Below, piece after piece: positions 6,879 to 26,364 of a stretch of 64,000 nucleotides of DNA. The DNA is taken from the NCBI GenBank assembly GCA_964577595.1, contig CAZNZK010000004.1:27294-91293 (forward strand). Reading direction: 5' to 3'. Position 1 is the stretch's first letter. Each line of letters begins with the position of its first letter. Source of the DNA: an uncultured Candidatus Saccharibacteria bacterium (lineage in GTDB: Bacteria; Patescibacteriota; Minisyncoccia; Phycocordibacterales; JAKAEA01). The position numbers and the translations under genes are program-made. The notes under the pieces are model-generated. The model made no database searches. It was not told where the DNA came from and worked only from the letters and a program-made list of their open reading frames with translations.

Positions 6879-8477
6879 TTATTTTTCTACGATAATAAAA
6901 GCTTCTAAGCGGTCGCCAGGCACAATGTCAAACTTTGATTCCACCATGGCGCCGAATTCCTGACCTTCCGGGATTTCGGTGGCTTTGGTTTTCTGACGCT
7001 GCAGTTCGCGCACTCGGCCGCGGCCGATTTCAAAGTCGCGGCGCATAATTTTTACTTCCGCGCCGAGTTTCATGAGACCTTTTTCCACGCGGCCGCCGAG
7101 GATCTGTTTGTCTTTTGCGCGACTGAAAAGTTTGAGGACTTTGGCGGTGCCGGTGGGCTCCTCCACTTTCATTTTTGGTACCTGATTTACCGCGTGTTCG
7201 CCGAGCCATTCGGAAAGCTTGTAAATAATGTCAAAAAGCTGGATGTTGACGCCACTATTTTGGCTCATGCCTTTGGCGGCACTACCGACACCAACACCGA
7301 AACCGAGAATAATTGCTTTTTTATCGGACAGGGCGGTTTTTATATCGCTTTCGTTAACATCGCCGATGCCGCTACTGACGACTTTGATAGTAAGGCGGTC
7401 GTGGTGGATTTTTGCCACTTCTTGTTTTAAAGCATCCAAGCCGCCGACGTCAGCGGCTTTGAGAATGAGGGGCAGAGAACCAACAGGCATTTCTTCGGCG
7501 GGTTCGGTGGTTGTTCCAGTAGCAGTAACAGCCGCTGGCTTAGCGCTTGGCCTCATCACTCGCGGTTTTTGTTCCGAACGCTTATTTTTTTCAGTTTCAA
7601 TGAATACCTCAGCTTCTTTCTTTGAATCAAATGTTTGAAATGGGGAACCGACGGGTGGTAATTCGCTCCAACCGAAAAGGCGCACAGGGCTTGAGAAGCT
7701 TGCCTCTTTTATAGGAGCGCCAGCGGTGGTTTCCATGACACGCACTGGGGTGGAGGCGAGGCCGGCGACAATAGTGGTCCCAGTGCGGATGGTGCCGTTC
7801 TTAATAATAAGCGTGGCAGCAATGCCTTTTTTGCGGTCTATGGCCGCGTCAACGATAATGCCGGTAGCCGGCACATTTGCGTCGCCAGTGAGCGCGGCAA
7901 GGTCGGCGGTCAAATCCACCATGTCCAAAAGCTCGGGCACGCCTTGGCCAGTTTTGGCCGAAATAGCTACCCAGGAGACGTCGCCACCGTAGCCTTCAAC
8001 ATAAATGTCATTTTCGGCGAGATTGGTTTTGGTGCGCTCTACGCTGGCGCCCTCTTTGTCTATCTTATTGATGGCAACAATAAAAGGGATTTTAGCGGTA
8101 CGGATAGCGTCGCGAGCTTCAATAGTTTGCGGGCGGACGCCATCTTCGGCGGAAACAACTAAAATGGCAATGTCGGCAACATTAGCACCGCGCGAACGGA
8201 TGGCGGAAAAAGCTTCATGACCAGGCGTATCCAAAAAAGTAATACGACGCAGAACAGCTTCTGCACCATTGCCGCCAGTGGCGGTGCGCTCCACTTCATA
8301 AGCCGAAACTTTCTGGGTAATGCCGCCAGCTTCGCCGTCAACGGTGTTGGTGCGGCGAATGTAATCCAAGAGGGTGCTTTTGCCGTGGTCAACGTGCCCT
8401 AAAACCGCCACCACCGGAGGGCGGGATAGGGTGCCGTTGTTGGCAATTTTTATGGTGTTTTTATTTTTTGTTGGCAT
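6879..8477 (-). CDS. infB: Translation initiation factor IF-2 (short form)
   Basis: G1 motif VAVLGHVDHGKSTLLD, DTPGH, NKID. It has domain II and the C-terminal domains but lacks the long N-terminal region. Confidence 0.9.
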   Translation of the reverse strand: MPTKNKNTIKIANNGTLSRPPVVAVLGHVDHGKSTLLDYIRRTNTVDGEAGGITQKVSAYEVERTATGGNGAEAVLRRITFLDTPGHEAFSAIRSRGANVADIAILVVSAEDGVRPQTIEARDAIRTAKIPFIVAINKIDKEGASVERTKTNLAENDIYVEGYGGDVSWVAISAKTGQGVPELLDMVDLTADLAALTGDANVPATGIIVDAAIDRKKGIAATLIIKNGTIRTGTTIVAGLASTPVRVMETTAGAPIKEASFSSPVRLFGWSELPPVGSPFQTFDSKKEAEVFIETEKNKRSEQKPRVMRPSAKPAAVTATGTTTEPAEEMPVGSLPLILKAADVGGLDALKQEVAKIHHDRLTIKVVSSGIGDVNESDIKTALSDKKAIILGFGVGVGSAAKGMSQNSGVNIQLFDIIYKLSEWLGEHAVNQVPKMKVEEPTGTAKVLKLFSRAKDKQILGGRVEKGLMKLGAEVKIMRRDFEIGRGRVRELQRQKTKATEIPEGQEFGAMVESKFDIVPGDRLEAFIIVEK

Positions 8478-18897: not shown

Positions 18898-18969
18898 GGG
18901 CCTATAGTTTCAATGGTAAAACGACGGTCTCCAAAACCGCAGTTCCCCGTTCGAGTCGGGGTGGGCCCG
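18898..18969 (+). tRNA. tRNA-Trp (anticodon CCA)
   Basis: GGGCCTA acceptor, D-arm GTTT-CAATGGTA-AAAC, anticodon loop CTCCAAA, T-arm CCCCG-TTCGAGT-CGGGG, 3' TGGGCCC-G. Confidence 0.8.
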
Positions 18970-18984
18970 CAGTGAAGCACCACT
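18964..18984. repeat. Left copy of the 21-bp direct repeat ggcccgcagtgaagcaccact (last 6 nt of tRNA-Trp plus 15 nt downstream)
   Basis: Exact match to 22071..22091. Confidence 0.8.
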
Positions 18985-19184
18985 TTCAGTCCTGATAATT
19001 AATTTCTATGTCGCACGAGAGCGGCCGGAATCGTATTTCCGGACATTCCTTGCGCGTTATTGTAATTCAAAATATACTAGTCACATTGGAATTACATGTT
19101 TCTGAATTCGCATACACTTGAATTAGAGATAGTCTAATTCTAATCGATTTGAATTAAATTAACGCTAATTCTAATGCACTAAAT

Positions 19185-20318
19185 ATGGCTGAAAATAAGG
19201 CTAAAACACCATTTGATTTACCCAAACTTCCACCTTTAATTGATTATAAGGAGCTGGTTGAACATATAAGCTCTGCTCATGCGGCGTTGGCTCGGTTAGA
19301 TGAAATGCTTAAACACGTTAGCAACCCAGCTCTTATAGAAAGGACGTTTCTTACTCGCGAAGCTGTTTTGAGCTCTCAAATTGAGGGTACACAAGCAACT
19401 CTTGAAGAGGTTATGAAAAAAGAAGCGGAAGATGGAAAAAAGATTTCTGAAACGACGGAAAAAGCTCGCGATATTCAAGAAATCATTAATTATCGTGACG
19501 CTTTACGCGAAGGGGTGGAAATTATAAATCAAGGAGAATTTCTCGCGGAAAACAATGTTAAAAAACTCCACAGAATTCTTCTTGAATCGGTGCGTGGAAA
19601 AACCAGAGCGCCAGGTGAATTTAGACGAGAGCAAGTTTATATTGCACCGCCAGGAACTCCCATGTCGGAAGCCGGGTATATTCCTCCAGTACCACAAGAG
19701 GTTCCGGAGCTGTATGGAAATTTTGATAAATATCTCAATACTGCAACATCTGAAAGGGACGTGCTCGTGCAAATCGCAATTTCCCACTATCAATTTGAGG
19801 CAATTCACCCATTTAAAGATGGTAATGGCCGGATGGGGCGTCTGTTGATACCTTTGTTTTTGTATCAAAGGAAAATTATCGCTCGACCACTTATGTATAT
19901 TAGTCAATATTTTGAAGAACACCGACGGGATTATTACGACTTACTTGCGGATGTTAGCTATAAGGATGCTTGGATACCATGGCTACGTTTTTTTCTGAAC
20001 GGTTTAAAAGAACAAGCTCTGGATGCATGCCAATTGGCAGGTAAAATTATCACGCTCCGTGATGAGTATCAAAAACATCTCGCTGAATTTAATTCGACAT
20101 ATGCCTTTAATTTACTGGATGCTATCTTCGCCAGGCCAATTTTTACGGTTGTCAAAATTCAAGAAAGATCGGGAATCAAGGTTTACCAGACTCTATTAAA
20201 TTTGGTTGAAAAGTTTGTTGACGCGGGGATTTTGCAAGATTCCACTCCTGATAAAAAAAGAAATAAAATATATGAGTTCAAGCCCCTCCTAAAACTGTTG
20301 GAGAATAAAAAGGAGTAA
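19185..20318 (+). CDS. Fic family protein (AMPylase/Fido domain)
   Basis: Fic motif HPFKDGNGRMGRLLIPLFL, 377 aa. Confidence 0.85.
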   Translation: MAENKAKTPFDLPKLPPLIDYKELVEHISSAHAALARLDEMLKHVSNPALIERTFLTREAVLSSQIEGTQATLEEVMKKEAEDGKKISETTEKARDIQEIINYRDALREGVEIINQGEFLAENNVKKLHRILLESVRGKTRAPGEFRREQVYIAPPGTPMSEAGYIPPVPQEVPELYGNFDKYLNTATSERDVLVQIAISHYQFEAIHPFKDGNGRMGRLLIPLFLYQRKIIARPLMYISQYFEEHRRDYYDLLADVSYKDAWIPWLRFFLNGLKEQALDACQLAGKIITLRDEYQKHLAEFNSTYAFNLLDAIFARPIFTVVKIQERSGIKVYQTLLNLVEKFVDAGILQDSTPDKKRNKIYEFKPLLKLLENKKE

Positions 20319-20368
20319 ATAAACCAGGTGCTATCCGTGGATTTTCAGCTCAATTGTGGCTTAAAATA

Positions 20369-20397
20369 GTTCTAATACTGTCCCATACGGCCCGCAG
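20369..20397. repeat. Internal att-like repeat gttctaatactgtcccatacggcccgcag
   Basis: Matches 22051..22079 with 2 mismatches over 29 nt and shares the ggcccgcag core with the tRNA-Trp 3' end. Confidence 0.7.
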
Positions 20398-20491
20398 CAA
20401 GATAGTGTTTAATTGTGTGTAATGTAGTGATTTTATGAGGTAATGCATGGTCGTAAGCCGACCTCGTTTTACAGTAACTGAGGTTGAATAA

Positions 20492-21385
20492 ATGCCCTCA
20501 ATCTACTATAATTCGGGTATGGAAAAACCTAGTCTTGCGTCAGATGCGGCTCTCGCAAGCACACCAGTCGAAAAGGCGATTGAAAACGTGCACGCAGATG
20601 CTGAGGTGACTAAGGACACACGTCCTGACATGGATACCGAGGAAAAAATAACGCAGTTGTCTAAAAGTAAACTTGAATTAGGCTCAACAATTGATGATCT
20701 TGATTCAAGAATATCGCAACATACGCAATCATTACACAGTGTTCGGGCGGCGCTCGACTTGCCAGAGCGGGCTGTGACTAACGACCCCGGATCGGTTGAG
20801 CTTAAGGACTTGATTGATGCGAAGAAAAAAGCTGAAGATAAACTCGAAAAAAAAGATGCATCGTTGACTAGCGAAGAAATGAAAGCAGAAGATACTGAAC
20901 AAGAAAGATTGAACAACAAAAAGATACAAGAGGGCTTATATTACTGCTCTCAATCAACACAAAAATTTGCAAACACATTACACGAACGAGTTGAGAGTGG
21001 TTTTGATTCCCTTGTTGATGATCAAGGACTTTCTGCAATTGATATTGCAACTGGGGGTTTAGATCAGGTAGGTAGTGAAAAAGAGATTGACTCTGCTCAA
21101 TTGCAAAAAACAGTAAGTACGCTGTATCAAGGTTTAGATGCTTTTGGGCGAGCGGAATCTGACAATACCCATCCCGCCGATAGTGCCGAAAGTCTGGAGT
21201 CCATGGCTTATGCGTTGAAGTCACTGCACGAAGGTGTGGGTGTAGTAAAGAACGCACTCAGTGTGCAAGGAAAAAAGTATCTTGATTCAGTAAATATCCT
21301 GCAAAAAATAGAGGATGAGGTGATTCCGCCAAGATACGATTTTCTGGTCAGAAAAATCAATGTGCTTAATGAGTATTATAGATAA
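20492..21385 (+). CDS. Hypothetical acidic, predicted-helical protein
   Basis: 297 aa, rich in E/D/K. No recognisable motif. Confidence 0.45.
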   Translation: MPSIYYNSGMEKPSLASDAALASTPVEKAIENVHADAEVTKDTRPDMDTEEKITQLSKSKLELGSTIDDLDSRISQHTQSLHSVRAALDLPERAVTNDPGSVELKDLIDAKKKAEDKLEKKDASLTSEEMKAEDTEQERLNNKKIQEGLYYCSQSTQKFANTLHERVESGFDSLVDDQGLSAIDIATGGLDQVGSEKEIDSAQLQKTVSTLYQGLDAFGRAESDNTHPADSAESLESMAYALKSLHEGVGVVKNALSVQGKKYLDSVNILQKIEDEVIPPRYDFLVRKINVLNEYYR

Positions 21386-21416
21386 TATAGAGAGGCCACA
21401 ATAGTTTCTAAAGTGT

Positions 21417-21974
21417 ATGAAAATACTTGCCATATCGGATAGGCCGCCAAGAAAGGGATTGAAAGATTTGGTTGAAAAGGAAAACATAAAATTAATTATT
21501 ACACTCGGCGATCTTGAATATCTTCAACTAATTGAGCTTAATAATATTTCAATTCCCAAGATCGGAGTGTATGGGAATCATTGCTCAGGTAACTATTTTG
21601 ATGATCTGGGAATTAAAAATATGCACTTACAGACCTTTGGGTTTGGCGGATTAAGTTTTGGAGGATTTGAGGGGTCTCATAAATACAAAAATGATCCATA
21701 TGCAAAAATGTACACTCAAGACCAAGCAAGGGAACTATTGAAAGACTTCCCCCACGTCGACGTCTTTGTATCGCACTCTCCACCCAAGGGAATAAATGAC
21801 CAAGACGATCTCGCCCATGTTGGATTAGAAGCATTGAGGGTCTACGTCCAAGAAAAGAAGCCAAAATATTTTTTACACGGCCACACATATCCTAAACCAG
21901 GAGAAGAGGTTACGCATTTTGAATCGACGGAAATCATTTATGTTTACGGGGATAAAATAATAGATTTACATTGA
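21417..21974 (+). CDS. Metallophosphoesterase (calcineurin-like, YfcE-like)
   Basis: Motifs ISD…GD…GNHC…HSPP…GHTY in the usual order. Confidence 0.7.
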   Translation: MKILAISDRPPRKGLKDLVEKENIKLIITLGDLEYLQLIELNNISIPKIGVYGNHCSGNYFDDLGIKNMHLQTFGFGGLSFGGFEGSHKYKNDPYAKMYTQDQARELLKDFPHVDVFVSHSPPKGINDQDDLAHVGLEALRVYVQEKKPKYFLHGHTYPKPGEEVTHFESTEIIYVYGDKIIDLH

Positions 21975-22050
21975 CCATTAATATGCAAATTTCCGACTCA
22001 TACATATCTAAACTTTCCCCATAATTTGCGTATTATTTTTAAACAATTCC

Positions 22051-22091
22051 GTTCTAATGCCGTCCCATACGGCCCGCAGTGAAGCACCACT
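22051..22091. repeat. Right composite repeat: the att-like arm (22051..22079) fused to a 21-bp copy of the tRNA-Trp 3' flank (22071..22091)
   Basis: gttctaatgccgtcccatacggcccgcag + tgaagcaccact. Confidence 0.8.
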
Positions 22092-22111
22092 CGTGTAGTG
22101 TGCAAAAGGAT

Positions 22112-23056
22112 ATGAAAAAGGTATTCATTAGCAATTCTCCAATTCAGGGTAGGGGAGTATTTGCCGCAGAAAATCTAAAAAAGAATGAAAAAGTTTTCAT
22201 GGTGAAAGGGCCTGTAATTATCTATCCAACACTGCCAGACGGAAGAATTGGTTCAGATTGGATGCACGTAGGACACAATGCGTGGAAAATCGCATACCAT
22301 GGTAGTCCTTGGGTTTTTCTCAACCACTCTTGCCGGCCCAATGCTTTTTTAAAAAATAAGTCTGACGTCGTGGCCATAAGGCCGATTAAAAAAGGTACAG
22401 AAATAACGCTGGATTATTCTTTCACTGAAGGGGGTCAAAATTGGAAAATGAAATGTCGGTGTGGTCTGCCCGAATGCAGAAAACAGATTCGAAGTATACA
22501 ATCTTTGCCGGAAACATTATTTAGGAAATACCAAGAGTATGTGCCCTCTTTTTTACAAAAAGAGTATTTAAAGCAGAAGGTATATGTTGGAAAAATAAAA
22601 TCAGGCCGTACTGTTTTTGTAAAGCGGCTAATAAAGAAAGGGGAAATATTATTTACCGTAGAAGGGCCACGCATCAGATTCCGAAAACCTCCAAAAGATA
22701 GCATTGGTTTTAAGTGGCTTGGTATTAGTAAAAACGAATGGTGTATTCCATTCAGAACCAATCCTTGGTTTTATGTGAGGCATTCGTGTGATCCGAATGT
22801 TGGTCTAGTCGATAAAAATAATGTGGTAGCACTAAAAATTATTGAGGCAAATGAAGAGATAGTCGTCGATGATTCAATTACAGAAGCTCAGGCAACATGG
22901 AAGGTGAAGTGTCATTGTGGCTCTAAAAATTGCCGCGGTATTATTAGGTCCATTCAGTTTTTGCCTAAAAAACAGTTTAAAAAATATTTACCCTACATCC
23001 CCGACTATTTTCAGAAAATATACAAACTCTATGCCGCACAAGATGGGTCGGTTTAG
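22112..23056 (+). CDS. Protein with two tandem SET domains (putative protein-lysine methyltransferase)
   Basis: Two SET cores (…VFLNHSCRPNAF…TEITLDYSF… and …FYVRHSCDPNVGL…EEIVVDDSI…), each followed by a post-SET Cys cluster (CRCGLPECRKQIRS and CHCGSKNCRGIIRS). Confidence 0.7.
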   Translation: MKKVFISNSPIQGRGVFAAENLKKNEKVFMVKGPVIIYPTLPDGRIGSDWMHVGHNAWKIAYHGSPWVFLNHSCRPNAFLKNKSDVVAIRPIKKGTEITLDYSFTEGGQNWKMKCRCGLPECRKQIRSIQSLPETLFRKYQEYVPSFLQKEYLKQKVYVGKIKSGRTVFVKRLIKKGEILFTVEGPRIRFRKPPKDSIGFKWLGISKNEWCIPFRTNPWFYVRHSCDPNVGLVDKNNVVALKIIEANEEIVVDDSITEAQATWKVKCHCGSKNCRGIIRSIQFLPKKQFKKYLPYIPDYFQKIYKLYAAQDGSV

Positions 23057-23163
23057 ATGCTGAAAATAAACAAAACAGTCCACTCAAATTTATTGTTCTG
23101 ACACAAATAAAAGAAAACCGTATAAAAGATTATGTAAAATGCAATATCTAATCGCGAGATTGG

Positions 23164-23850
23164 TTATTTCATTGCAACTGCCGCCTGAAAATCGCCGAGG
23201 GTGGAAAAAGTGCCGTGGACTTTATTATTGATGATGAAAAAAGGCGGGGTAGTGGTGACAGGAATTTTCGGCAAGGAGAGAAGCGATTGCACGGCGGCGA
23301 AATCATTGGTGTAGTCAAAAGAATACACATAGGCTTGTGGATTTTGCTGTTTAACGGCGCCGAGAATATATTCTTGAGCAAGGCACTGGTCGCAGGATGC
23401 GTCGGGATAAAAGTAGAGGACAAAAAGTGGGCTACTGGTGGCGGAAATCGGTGTCGCGGTTTTTGGTGCCGGGTTTAGTGCGCGCTCCAAAAGGTAGGCC
23501 TTTATTTCCAACAGAGAAAAGTAGCGTTCCAAGCGGAAAAGATCGGGATTCTCGGGCCCGAGCTGGTCTTGCATGAAGGCAAGCTTGGCCTGGAGATCAT
23601 TCATGTTAGAGGCGATAACGGCGGCGGTGCTGGTGGCGGAAGCATTGGCACCACTGCGCAAAACTTGCGCGGCGGTGAGTTCGGATTGTGCTTGTAGGGA
23701 AAGAATCTGGGTGGCCACAGCATCTTCCTCGTTCTGGAGAGAAATAGTTTTTCTATAATTTAAATAGTTACTGACGAGCCAGGCGCCGAAGAAAAGCGCC
23801 AGCGTCGCCCCTAGTGTTAGGGCGTAGAGCCATATGGGGATTTTTTTCAT
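23164..23850 (-). CDS. Membrane-anchored hypothetical protein with a C-terminal CxxC (thioredoxin-like?) region; co-operonic with the GT2 gene
   Basis: N-terminal TM, predicted coiled-coil middle, …YFYPDASCDQCLAQEY…; 4-nt overlap with the upstream GT2 gene. Confidence 0.5.
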   Translation of the reverse strand: MKKIPIWLYALTLGATLALFFGAWLVSNYLNYRKTISLQNEEDAVATQILSLQAQSELTAAQVLRSGANASATSTAAVIASNMNDLQAKLAFMQDQLGPENPDLFRLERYFSLLEIKAYLLERALNPAPKTATPISATSSPLFVLYFYPDASCDQCLAQEYILGAVKQQNPQAYVYSFDYTNDFAAVQSLLSLPKIPVTTTPPFFIINNKVHGTFSTLGDFQAAVAMK

Positions 23851-25166
23851 AGCGAAGGAGAGTTGGAATTTTTCACCGTGACAACGGCGCGCTCTTTTTG
23901 CCAGCTGGGGGCGTGCGAGATGGCCGCATTATACACCGACTTTATAATCCACCATGGCGAGAGAAGCGGAAAGAGAATAAAGTAGAGAACGGTGGAGCGG
24001 CCAAAAAGTGTTTTCTCGCCGGCCAGGATGCGGGCCTCAATAATCATGCCAATCATCAAGAAGTAGACGACGGCGATAAGCAGAAAGTGAGCTTGGGTGC
24101 TCACAAAAAACCAGTTCCAGGCAAAGTGCGGTGCTTGCCAGCCCACCACGCGCATTTGCACGGAGAAGTGCCAGAGGCTCAAAATGAAGCGGTAGATAAT
24201 AAAAGCGACGGAAGAGACAACGCCGATAATCATTGCCACACCAATGGGGACGGTGAAGAGGGCGAGGTTGCCGTAGCGTGGGTTCAGGAGCATGTGGCGG
24301 TAATCGCGGACGTTGAGGAGGAAGCCAGAGGTCCAGCGCACTCGTTGGCGATAGAGCTTGGCGATGGTGGCGGGGCCGGCGGTATACACTATTGCATCAT
24401 GGACATTTTCAATGTGTAAATGGCTGGCCTGAATGCGAAAAGCCAATTCCATATCCTCGGTGTTATGGGCGTGCTGGAAGTAGCCGATTTTCGCGAAAAG
24501 ATCGCGACGGAAAAGCGAAAATGGCCCGGGCGTAACATAAATAGCGCCGATGCAAGCCTGGACTTTTTTAACGAGCATACCAACAAGGTATTCGGTGTAT
24601 TGGAGTACTTGGATAAGCGTCTTCGGTTTATAGATTTTCATACCCGGAGTGACGGCGGCAACCATCGCGCCTGGCGTGCCTAATGGGGCGCTAAGGTCGC
24701 CAAAAAATGGCACCATTTTTTTCAAGGCATCGGAGGCAACGAGCGAGTCGGCATCCAGGCAACCAACAATGTCGGTACTGGCGTGCTCTATTGCGTAATT
24801 GAGGGCGGTATATTTGCCACCGTTTTCTTTGCGGTGAATTTCAAGCATTGCATAGCGGCTTTGCAGGTTTTGTAAAACGCTCCAGGTGTTGTCGCGCGAG
24901 CCGTCGTCTACGGCAACAATGCGCAATTTTCCGGCAGGATATTTAAGCGCGGCTAGGGATTCAACGGTTTTACCCACCGTTTTTGCCTCGTTGTAGCAAG
25001 GAACGATAATGGTGACGGAAGGGTAGAGGGCTGGCTCCCGCTCGGCTTTGGCCCTGTCGTCGCGGATTTTGCGTCGATTAACGGTGTAGACAACCAGAAT
25101 AAAGACCTGAAAATAAAGGCCGACGAATAAAAAGCAGTAAAGGGCTATATTCTGGAGCGTTTCCAT
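23847..25166 (-). CDS. Family-2 processive glycosyltransferase (cellulose/chitin/PNAG/hyaluronan-synthase-like), membrane-integrated
   Basis: VTIIVPCYNEAKTV…VAVDDGSRDNT…DAD…QRVRWTSG (QxxRW) plus multiple C-terminal TM helices. Start placed at ATG 25166 (METLQNI…) so it does not run into pheS. Confidence 0.8.
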   Translation of the reverse strand: METLQNIALYCFLFVGLYFQVFILVVYTVNRRKIRDDRAKAEREPALYPSVTIIVPCYNEAKTVGKTVESLAALKYPAGKLRIVAVDDGSRDNTWSVLQNLQSRYAMLEIHRKENGGKYTALNYAIEHASTDIVGCLDADSLVASDALKKMVPFFGDLSAPLGTPGAMVAAVTPGMKIYKPKTLIQVLQYTEYLVGMLVKKVQACIGAIYVTPGPFSLFRRDLFAKIGYFQHAHNTEDMELAFRIQASHLHIENVHDAIVYTAGPATIAKLYRQRVRWTSGFLLNVRDYRHMLLNPRYGNLALFTVPIGVAMIIGVVSSVAFIIYRFILSLWHFSVQMRVVGWQAPHFAWNWFFVSTQAHFLLIAVVYFLMIGMIIEARILAGEKTLFGRSTVLYFILFPLLSPWWIIKSVYNAAISHAPSWQKERAVVTVKNSNSPSL

Positions 25167-25221
25167 GAAAAGTGTTGTGCAGTATAGCAAAAACAGGCGG
25201 TTTGAGCTATGATGGCTCATT

Positions 25222-26364
25222 ATGACTAGAAAGATTGTCATTGCCGACCCGCAGGAGGACGCTCTCGTCGCCGAGCTAGAAAAAAGAACCGATGTTAAGG
25301 CCGAGCGCGTAAAACGGCTTTTACGCTTGCCCGACTTAACGAAAAAAGCCAACTCGCCCGTAAAAATTCTTTTTGATCAAATAATTTCTTTGCCTCGCTT
25401 TAAAAATTTTGACCTCGTTGATTTTCCGCGGATAGTGACGGTGGAGCAAGATTTTGACCTCCTTAATACACCCGCCAACCATCCAAGCAGAAAAGAAACC
25501 GACACCTATTATGTGGACGAAAACCATGTACTCAGAACGCAAATGACCGTTATGTGGTCGTTTTATCTGAAAGACAAAGACATTTTGAAAAAACTGGAAA
25601 CCGAGGGCGAAATCGGGGCGCTTTCAACCGGTATCGTTTTTCGCAAGGACGAAATTGACCGCCACCACTACCCGGCGTTTCACCAAATTGACGGTCTCTA
25701 CGTGTGTAAGCGGTCAAAAAAAGTTATCACCCAGAAAGATCTGGAGGAGGTGCAGGTTGATATGGCCAAAAGCATTTTCGGCGACGCCATAGAATACAAA
25801 TTTCTGGTGGATACATTTCCGTTTACCGACCCTTCCGTGGAAATGGACATGAAATTCCGTGGCGAGTGGATGGAGGTCAACGGCGCTGGCTTGGTGCATC
25901 CGCAGGTGCTGAAAAATTTTGGCTTGGATCCGGAAATCTACAATGGCTGGGCTTTCGGTTTCGGCGACCGTTTGGCAATGGTAAAAATGGGCATTCCTGA
26001 CATTCGTATTTTATGGTCGGAGGATTCGCGTATCACCTCGCAATTCAAAGACATTAACAGCACGTTTAAAGAAATCAGCAAATATCCGGCCGTGGTGCGC
26101 GACATTTCTTTCGTTGTGGACAAAAGCGTCACGCTTAATAATTATTACGAAATTATCAGAGATGAGGCCGAAAATCTCATTGAAGAAGTGAAGCTTATAG
26201 ATACGTTTGAAAATGAGAAAAAATTCGGTCCCGGCAAAATTTCCCATACCTTCAGAATCACCTATCGGTCATTAGACAGAACGCTCACTAATGACGAAAT
26301 AAACCGCATCCACGATGCGATCGTGAAAAAAACCGAGAAAGAGTTGCAGGCGGTGGTGCGGTAA
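25222..26364 (+). CDS. pheS: Phenylalanine--tRNA ligase alpha subunit
   Basis: …FPFTDPSVEMDMKFRGEWMEVNGAGLVHPQVLKNFGLDPEIYNGWAFGFGDRLAMVKMGIPDIR… class II core. No pheT follows. Confidence 0.85.
   Translation: MTRKIVIADPQEDALVAELEKRTDVKAERVKRLLRLPDLTKKANSPVKILFDQIISLPRFKNFDLVDFPRIVTVEQDFDLLNTPANHPSRKETDTYYVDENHVLRTQMTVMWSFYLKDKDILKKLETEGEIGALSTGIVFRKDEIDRHHYPAFHQIDGLYVCKRSKKVITQKDLEEVQVDMAKSIFGDAIEYKFLVDTFPFTDPSVEMDMKFRGEWMEVNGAGLVHPQVLKNFGLDPEIYNGWAFGFGDRLAMVKMGIPDIRILWSEDSRITSQFKDINSTFKEISKYPAVVRDISFVVDKSVTLNNYYEIIRDEAENLIEEVKLIDTFENEKKFGPGKISHTFRITYRSLDRTLTNDEINRIHDAIVKKTEKELQAVVR

Follow-up and report, generated by a model that had tools for sequence, protein, structure and literature searches.

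A tandem SET-domain protein with one intact and one degenerate domain in a tRNA-Trp cassette hotspot of a Patescibacterial genome

The lysines of eukaryotic chromatin are methylated mainly by SET-domain enzymes; of the prokaryotic relatives of these enzymes, little is understood beyond a few effectors of pathogens. In this work, we describe a gene that encodes two SET domains in one small protein. It lies in a 64,000-nucleotide (nt) stretch of contig CAZNZK010000004.1 (assembly GCA_964577595.1, positions 27,294 to 91,293; hereafter the window) from an uncultured Candidatus Saccharibacteria bacterium of the Patescibacteriota. The N-terminal domain (N domain) is an intact SET domain, and the C-terminal domain (C domain) is a pseudo-SET that has lost cofactor-binding and catalytic residues. 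This SET/pseudo-SET fusion is undescribed, yet it departs only modestly from a familiar type of enzyme; we found no literature on SET domains in Patescibacteria, and a literature search on tandem or dual SET domains gave nothing on prokaryotes. The best overall explanation, which we hold with moderate confidence, is that the protein is a cytoplasmic, zinc-binding SET methyltransferase that depends on S-adenosylmethionine (SAM) and is built as a covalent pair of one active and one inactive domain.

Several described systems share parts of this design. With the MLL/SET1, ASH1, and SET2 enzymes (PF00856 plus post-SET), the N domain has in common the fold, the GxG, NHSC, and ELxxDY motifs, and a CxCx4C zinc cluster completed by the NHSC cysteine. 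The protein differs from them in its minimal module of ~155 amino acids (aa) with a prokaryote-specific two-helix hairpin at the C-terminal end, in the lack of pre-SET, AWS, and reader domains, and in the tandem duplicate with a degenerate second copy. The C domain is closer to the inactive SET domains of MLL5, yeast Set3, and Drosophila UpSET: like MLL5, it lacks the XGXG motif and the active-site Tyr, has Arg for the Asn of the NH pair, and keeps the fold and the post-SET zinc cage. Human MLL5, in which XGXG is lost, NH is changed to RR, and the active-site Tyr is lost, was found experimentally to bind neither SAM nor substrate (PMC5094779). Proteins of this type combine a single dead SET domain with PHD fingers and belong to deacetylase complexes, whereas the pseudo-SET described here is fused to a paralogous SET domain, predicted to be active, in one small polypeptide.

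Two single-module proteins of similar size, PBCV-1 vSET (a side-by-side dimer) and Burkholderia BurB (a tetramer), self-associate. These are homo-oligomers of identical active subunits, whereas the halves of the window protein are covalently linked and asymmetric; a self-associating single module of this kind is probably what the fused pair descends from. As for membership of the BurB type itself, the similarity to BurB is partial (residues 69-136, E-value 4.5e-7) and weaker than that to MLL. METTL3-METTL14 and DNMT3A-DNMT3L are methyltransferase pairs of an active enzyme and a pseudoenzyme, in which the degenerate paralog acts as a scaffold or substrate platform. The evolutionary logic of a catalytic paralog with a retained degenerate one is the same here, but it is realized with the SET fold within ~310 residues; those pairs have the class I Rossmann fold and consist of separate polypeptides, and the analogy is to mechanism only. 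The secreted bacterial effectors NUE (Chlamydia), RomA/LegAS4 (Legionella), and BaSET (Bacillus) and the archaeal Go1-SET are likewise prokaryotic SET-domain proteins. The window protein differs from this group in that it lacks a secretion signal as well as ankyrin repeats or other targeting domains, has no eukaryotic host, and is tandem in architecture.

The SET homology of both halves, proposed earlier from the sequence alone, was confirmed by profile searches. The Pfam SET model matches the whole 314-aa protein in two stretches (E-value 5.5e-21), and each half alone scores above the gathering score of 22.4 bits (N half: 2e-13, 51.1 bits; C half: 2.1e-6, 28.6 bits). The motifs quoted in that original prediction are all present (NHSCRPN at residues 71-77, TLDY at 99-102, RHSCDPN at 223-229, and VVDD at 251-254), and each half does have its own cysteine cluster (C74/C115/C117/C122 and C226/C267/C269/C274). 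The two halves are 44% identical across 140 residues (E-value 4e-43), which is far above chance. No Pfam domain other than SET was found in the protein, and searches of NCBIfam, PADLOC, and PHROGs gave no family for it.

An AlphaFold2 (AF2) model computed from 32 family sequences has a predicted local distance difference test score (pLDDT) of 92.9 and a predicted template modeling score (pTM) of 0.82. In this model, each half consists of a beta-rich SET core followed by a short strand and a two-helix hairpin, and the helices at residues 134-154 lead directly into strand 157-162 of the second domain with no disordered linker. The best sequence match of the N half in the PDB is the SET domain of MLL1/KMT2A (E-value 1.2e-12), and the Foldseek matches of the model in the PDB are SETD2/NSD and, at the top, MLL1/3/4, ASH1L, BurB, and vSET. 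By both sequence and modeled fold, the protein is closest, among solved structures, to lysine methyltransferases of the MLL/ASH1/SET2 type. All Foldseek matches in the PDB and BFVD are to single domains (at most ~154 aligned columns at good root-mean-square deviation; query-normalized TM-score, TMq, at most 0.36); a chain spanning both domains was found neither among the solved structures nor among the viral ones.

The two domains differ in the residues that matter for activity. In an alignment of the window protein and 31 full-length homologs (n = 32; homologs at 33-60% identity), from which all motifs were tabulated, the N-domain residues G15, F17, N71, H72, C74, D101, Y102, C115, C117, and C122 are invariant, and G13 is conserved in at least 90% of the sequences. 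All eight zinc cysteines, from both domains, are also invariant. The C domain, in contrast, has no conserved GxG motif. Its residue at the position of the NHSC Asn is Arg in 18 sequences, Lys in six, Asn in three, and another residue in five, such that the Asn is gone in 29 of the 32; the position of the catalytic Tyr is occupied by Asp (26 sequences), Asn (three), or Tyr (three), a change to Asp or Asn in the same proportion. The His, Ser, and Cys of the NHSC motif and the preceding Asp are kept. Y102 and its counterpart D254 mark the sole position that is conserved within both domains yet differs in residue between them.

The SAM pocket and the catalytic Tyr are thus retained in the N domain only. 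The proposal of two complete SET domains does not hold for the window protein, in which the C domain lacks GxG and has Arg for the Asn and Asp for the catalytic Tyr; this half is the degenerate pseudo-SET. MLL5, which has substitutions of the same classes, neither binds SAM nor is active, and on this basis we read the C domain as inactive, that is, as degenerate in its cofactor and catalytic residues and probably unable to bind SAM or catalyze methyl transfer. This degeneration does not resemble decay. The mean pairwise identity is 48% among C halves vs. 46% among N halves, and the change from Tyr to Asp is fixed; both patterns indicate that the C domain is a pseudo-SET maintained by selection.

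The fusion belongs to a family of ~30 clusters of ~310 aa that is conserved in Patescibacteria; about 30 full-length homologs were found at 40-61% identity to the window protein. Its named members come from Magasanikbacteria, Uhrbacteria, and "Patescibacteria group" metagenome-assembled genomes (MAGs) and are annotated plainly as SET-domain methyltransferases. A bootstrapped neighbor-joining (NJ) tree of the halves, which also included 53 single-domain relatives, places the N halves of 30 members in one clade and their C halves in its sister clade (bootstrap support: 85% for N plus C, 83% for C, and 63% for N). Since the two clades are sisters with bootstrap support, the tree points to one ancestral tandem duplication followed by co-divergence of the N and C halves. 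P0023 has retained NHSC and DY in its C domain and falls, with weak support (42%), at the base of the C clade, a placement consistent with loss of the catalytic residues after the duplication. P0032, in which both SET sites are intact, and P0064 seem to stem from duplications of their own.

The ancestral unit is a module of ~155-180 aa comprising SET, post-SET, and the helical hairpin, all of which is shared by the single-domain relatives. This single-domain module is widespread, occurring in Patescibacteria, DPANN and other archaea, Verrucomicrobia, Anaerolineae, Gemmatimonadota, and others. A scan of species-representative genomes found 545 loci encoding relatives; the tandem form was present in two (L007 and L008) of the best 80. 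The contig of L008 (CAZRYK010000031.1) is labeled "uncultured Gammaproteobacteria" and encodes a full tandem member with 47% identity. It is probably a mis-binned Patescibacterial contig; otherwise, it would represent a transfer.

The original prediction had also called the duplicated architecture unusual, which is correct only in part. Among the top 150 matches of a profile search across 1.84 billion representative proteins, many further proteins have at least two SET units. Most of these further multi-SET proteins keep both sites, including 36 with an "AA" architecture. The nameable ones come largely from eukaryotes (Closterium, Aphanomyces, Balamuthia, Thraustotheca, Mesostigma, and a Trypanosoma protein of 1449 aa with eight units), and one is from a Pirellula MAG. 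In Verrucomicrobial MAGs, two small SET genes are adjacent on the same strand but unfused, with GxG, NHSC, and DY intact in both (Table 1). Tandem SET domains are therefore recurrent, occurring in many lineages in addition to this family; what sets the Patescibacterial family apart is the fixed arrangement of an active and a pseudo domain. Separately, proteins with four to eight SET-like units were observed in eukaryotes, namely, P0093/P0095 (Trypanosoma, ~1450 aa), P0099 (Mesostigma, 1415 aa), P0146, P0184, and P0191. In the Trypanosoma proteins, intact-looking (a) and degenerate (x) units alternate in the pattern axaxaxaa, which suggests repeated active/pseudo pairs on a larger scale.

In the mechanism that we propose, a single-domain prokaryotic SET module was duplicated in tandem and the second active site was given up afterwards, such that the fusion would be the covalent counterpart of the oligomers into which small SET proteins assemble. 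The N module (residues 1-155) is predicted to be the enzyme and to carry out SAM-dependent methyl transfer. The pseudo-SET (residues 156-314) may be an obligatory, permanently attached partner subunit that provides structural support, substrate docking, or both. We infer this partner role because small SET proteins oligomerize, Verrucomicrobia have adjacent paralog pairs, and the AF2 model has a high pTM and no linker. The substrate would most likely be a lysine of an acidic or nucleic-acid-associated protein, such as a nucleoid or ribosomal protein, because the family is strongly basic: the window protein has an isoelectric point (pI) of 9.8 and a net charge of +29, and the family is mostly at pI 9.2-10.2. 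The single-domain relatives have an average net charge of +16.6, and most neighboring proteins are acidic or neutral. Archaeal Go1-SET methylates the native chromatin protein MC1-alpha and is a plausible precedent for an endogenous target. Under this proposal, candidate-phyla-radiation bacteria maintain a small SET module, and one lineage has fused two copies and fixed one as a pseudoenzyme. The protein would offer a compact, readily expressed model of how a dead SET domain supports a live one, as well as an entry point to protein methylation in minimal-genome organisms.

Some observations weigh against this proposal. The His, Ser, Cys, and zinc site retained in the C domain make residual ligand binding possible, and three members (P0023, P0032, and P0064) keep the Tyr there. 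A tandem architecture does not require a dead second domain, as most other tandem SET proteins keep both sites. The contact between the two domains and its likeness to the vSET or BurB oligomer geometry would be features of the model that we infer, and basic charge is a weak indicator of substrate class. Moreover, BurB, a SET methyltransferase of free methionine, is among the top structural matches.

This last point raises the alternative that the N domain methylates a small molecule, as BurB does (e.g., methionine to S-methylmethionine), and not a protein lysine. BurB is a single-domain SET protein of 172 aa, similar in size to one half of the fusion and matched by both structure (Foldseek E-value 2e-9) and sequence. 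It holds Met through main-chain atoms, and telling a lysine from a methionine substrate by the BurB contact residues, which we considered, is not possible from sequence. However, the sequence match to MLL-type lysine methyltransferases is the stronger one, no homologs of a DMSP/malleicyprol pathway of the BurI/D/E type were found among the neighbors in the ten gene contexts inspected (that of the window and nine others from the family), and a strong positive charge is not expected of a metabolic enzyme. We therefore regard a small-molecule substrate as unlikely and favor a protein lysine as the target of the active/inactive pair.

The features of the locus are listed in Table 1. The open reading frame (ORF) is intact and was counted from its ATG. 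An in-frame GTG at 22079 was considered as the start codon and is unlikely, since the homologs all begin at the position of M1 and a 314-aa member (P0248) exists in the same 90% cluster. The database entry P0001 has 285 aa, an internal Met having been taken as the start. A scan for promoters and terminators around the gene gave matches at or below the shuffled expectation.

Table 1. Coordinates of the SET/pseudo-SET gene, its motifs, its surroundings, and the unfused SET gene pairs (positions in the window, except for L034 and L047, which have their own numbering).
Feature	Position	Strand	Evidence
SET/pseudo-SET fusion gene	22112..23056	+	ORF, Pfam SET x2, full-length homologs, AF2 model
N-terminal module, residues 1-155 (intact SET, post-SET zinc cluster, two-helix hairpin)	22112..22576	+	Pfam 2e-13
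C-terminal module, residues 156-314 (pseudo-SET; fold, zinc cluster, helical hairpin kept)	22577..23053	+	Pfam 2.1e-6
GxG motif of N domain, G-R-G at residues 13-15, SAM-binding	22148..22156	+	Alignment, motif table
N-H-S-C of N domain, residues 71-74, cofactor-binding and first zinc cysteine	22322..22333	+	Alignment
D101-Y102, catalytic tyrosine of N domain	22412..22417	+	Invariant 32/32
Post-SET CxCx4C of N domain (C115, C117, C122)	22454..22477	+	Cysteines invariant
R-H-S-C of C domain, residues 223-226, Arg for Asn of NHSC	22778..22789	+	Motif table
D253-D254 of C domain, Asp for catalytic Tyr	22868..22873	+	Motif table
Post-SET CxCx4C of C domain (C267, C269, C274)	22910..22933	+	Cysteines invariant
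tRNA-Trp(CCA), hotspot anchor	18898..18970	+	ARAGORN; same tRNA just after MgsA in L171 and L172
Low-GC accessory block (SoFic, 297-aa protein, metallophosphoesterase, SET/pseudo-SET), from tRNA-Trp to TM-GT2-PheS	18971..23163	.	GC3
21-nt repeat, copy 1 (last 7 nt of tRNA-Trp and 14 nt of flank)	18964..18984	+	Exact match to 22071-22091
tRNA-3'-end-like border element between SoFic cassette and next cassette	20369..20397	+	93% identical to 22051-22079
Border element and 21-nt tRNA-end repeat, 20 nt upstream of SET start	22051..22091	+	Repeat comparison
SoFic-type Fic protein, 377 aa, neighboring cargo, first cassette after tRNA-Trp	19185..20318	+	Pfam Fic_N and Fic
Unfused SET gene pair in L034	4908-5486 and 5724-6212	same strand	Intact motifs
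Unfused SET gene pair in L047	4983-5489 and 5663-6277	same strand	Intact motifs

In this genome, the SET gene is horizontally acquired accessory cargo of a tRNA-Trp cassette hotspot. The G+C content at third codon positions (GC3) of the four cargo genes from SoFic to SET/pseudo-SET is 0.33-0.36, compared with 0.51-0.61 in the flanking genes. Judged by its PheS, the host is a Patescibacterium of the Paceibacterota/Parcubacteria type. Two syntenic relatives, L171 and L172, were found via PheS homologs (82 and 78% identical). Both share the order MgsA, tRNA-Trp, a low-GC block of ~5 kb, a transmembrane (TM) protein, GT2, PheS, and GyrB, and their cargo is entirely different: a 1543-aa SNF2 helicase-methyltransferase in L171 and nine small ORFs in L172. 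We assign the SET gene to the hotspot on account of its low GC3, the repeats that border the cassettes, and these relatives with the same flanks but different cargo. The tRNA-Trp islet noted in the original prediction is therefore real; the SET gene was placed at its boundary and in fact lies inside the variable block, though distal to the last recognizable repeat. It was also said to be next to the Fic gene, from which it is separated by two genes (a 297-aa protein, 20492-21385, and a 185-aa metallophosphoesterase, 21417-21974). In other genomes, the GC3 of the family genes is only mildly low or neutral. A metagenome scan via the upstream MgsA found 80 loci (best identity 76%), none of which was syntenic beyond MgsA.

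The cassettes are bordered by an element of 45-80 nt that resembles the T-arm and acceptor 3' end of tRNA-Trp (AATTCCGTTCTAATnCnGTCCnAnACGGCCCGC...). It was observed in the window at 18964-18984, 20355-20397, and 22037-22091, with a 29-nt arm at 20369-20397 and 22051-22079, and also in L171 (2504-2548 and 7319-7363) and L172 (4249-4329, 6946-7026, and 7402-7430). This border element resembles either serial att-site remnants or a site of cassette recombination; the tRNA-Trp hotspots of the window, L171, and L172 showed no integrase. A regulatory role of the repeats was rejected, given that their distance to the next gene start ranges from ~20 to ~200 nt. The hotspot and its recurrent tRNA-like border element provide a small, tractable case of how accessory genes turn over in Patescibacteria. 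At the place of the SET gene in the window, after the last border element and before the conserved TM-protein gene, L171 and L172 have small ORFs built from 12/18-nt tandem repeats and rich in Tyr and Asn (7536-7850, 104 aa, and 7615-7902, 95 aa, respectively).

Among the neighboring cargo, the Fic protein matches PADLOC SoFic over its full length (E-value 1.1e-110) and NCBIfam SoFic below the model cut-off (5e-53). The 297-aa protein (+ strand) is strongly acidic (pI 4.7, net charge -20) and is matched by nothing in Pfam, NCBIfam, PADLOC, or PHROGs. Its cassette also contains the metallophosphoesterase, for which there is a weak PADLOC candidate match (PDC-S10, E-value 1.8e-11).

Patescibacteria are generally episymbionts, and the original prediction had compared the placement of the SET gene with effector loci. 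On this reading, the protein would be a secreted effector that methylates proteins of the cell hosting the Patescibacterium, analogous to NUE, RomA/LegAS4, and BaSET. The lifestyle would fit, as would the origin of the gene as horizontally acquired hotspot cargo with foreign codon usage, and characterized bacterial SET proteins are often effectors (PMC3980110). The locus itself does not support the comparison. By inspection, the protein has no signal peptide and starts at its N-terminus with the first beta-strand of the SET domain; it has neither ankyrin repeats nor comparable targeting domains; and the Fic gene is a SoFic-type defense gene. No secretion genes are adjacent, and none were found in the ten gene contexts apart from a TraG-like gene near P0028. 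The nine other contexts are unrelated and often housekeeping: they include alaS, GtrA, and the ribosomal operon; FtsJ, GidB, and RsmE (in two related genomes); BipA, L20, L35, and IF3; RNase H and CysS, with HicA and TraG nearby; OCD and PALP beside a small Fic/Doc pair; and several made up of unknown genes. Furthermore, the likely hosts are prokaryotes without histones H3/H4. A secreted effector is accordingly quite improbable.

We give equally little credence to a role in anti-phage defense or counter-defense, in which the protein would be a conflict-system component in a hotspot resembling a defense island. The hotspot is shared with the full-length SoFic and the candidate-matching metallophosphoesterase, the same hotspot in L171 has the SNF2 helicase-methyltransferase, and other family members occur near Fic/Doc, HicA, Cas2-like, and TraG genes. 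However, the SET protein has no match to a defense or phage family in PADLOC or PHROGs, and several members are in plainly housekeeping neighborhoods. Moreover, no partner gene recurs across the ten contexts, with only the close relatives P0014 and P0022 sharing the FtsJ/GidB context. In a specific form of this idea, to which we assign a similarly low probability, the fusion would be a mobile conflict protein of Patescibacteria, picked up as hotspot cargo next to SoFic, that methylates lysines on nucleic-acid-associated proteins of a phage or host bacterium, with the pseudo-SET and its fixed Asp as a docking or reader module. If true, it would be the first SET-domain enzyme implicated in conflict between prokaryotes or between prokaryotes and phages.

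Least likely of all is a bivalent enzyme with two catalytic sites, as the two complete domains of the original prediction would imply: both halves do pass the Pfam gathering score and retain H-S-C together with the preceding Asp and a complete zinc cluster, and many other tandem SET proteins have both sites intact, but the C-domain losses are consistent in 29 of 32 members and their equivalents abolish SAM binding in MLL5.

Two further observations concern the flank downstream of the hotspot. The presence of tRNA-synt_2d and FDX-ACB in one chain is typical of the monomeric mitochondrial phenylalanyl-tRNA synthetase and not of the bacterial alpha2-beta2 enzyme. The PheS of the window (25222-26364, + strand, 380 aa) has both the class II catalytic core (tRNA-synt_2d) and the FDX-ACB anticodon-binding domain, with no adjacent PheT. 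More than 4500 homologs were scored; the top matches listed are nearly all ~380 aa, and several are annotated as hypothetical. The longest ORF of the GT2 glycosyltransferase (23847-25352, - strand, 501 aa from TTG) would overlap the start of PheS by ~130 nt. With the start given by gene callers and by the relatives (439 aa, 23847-25166), this overlap is removed.

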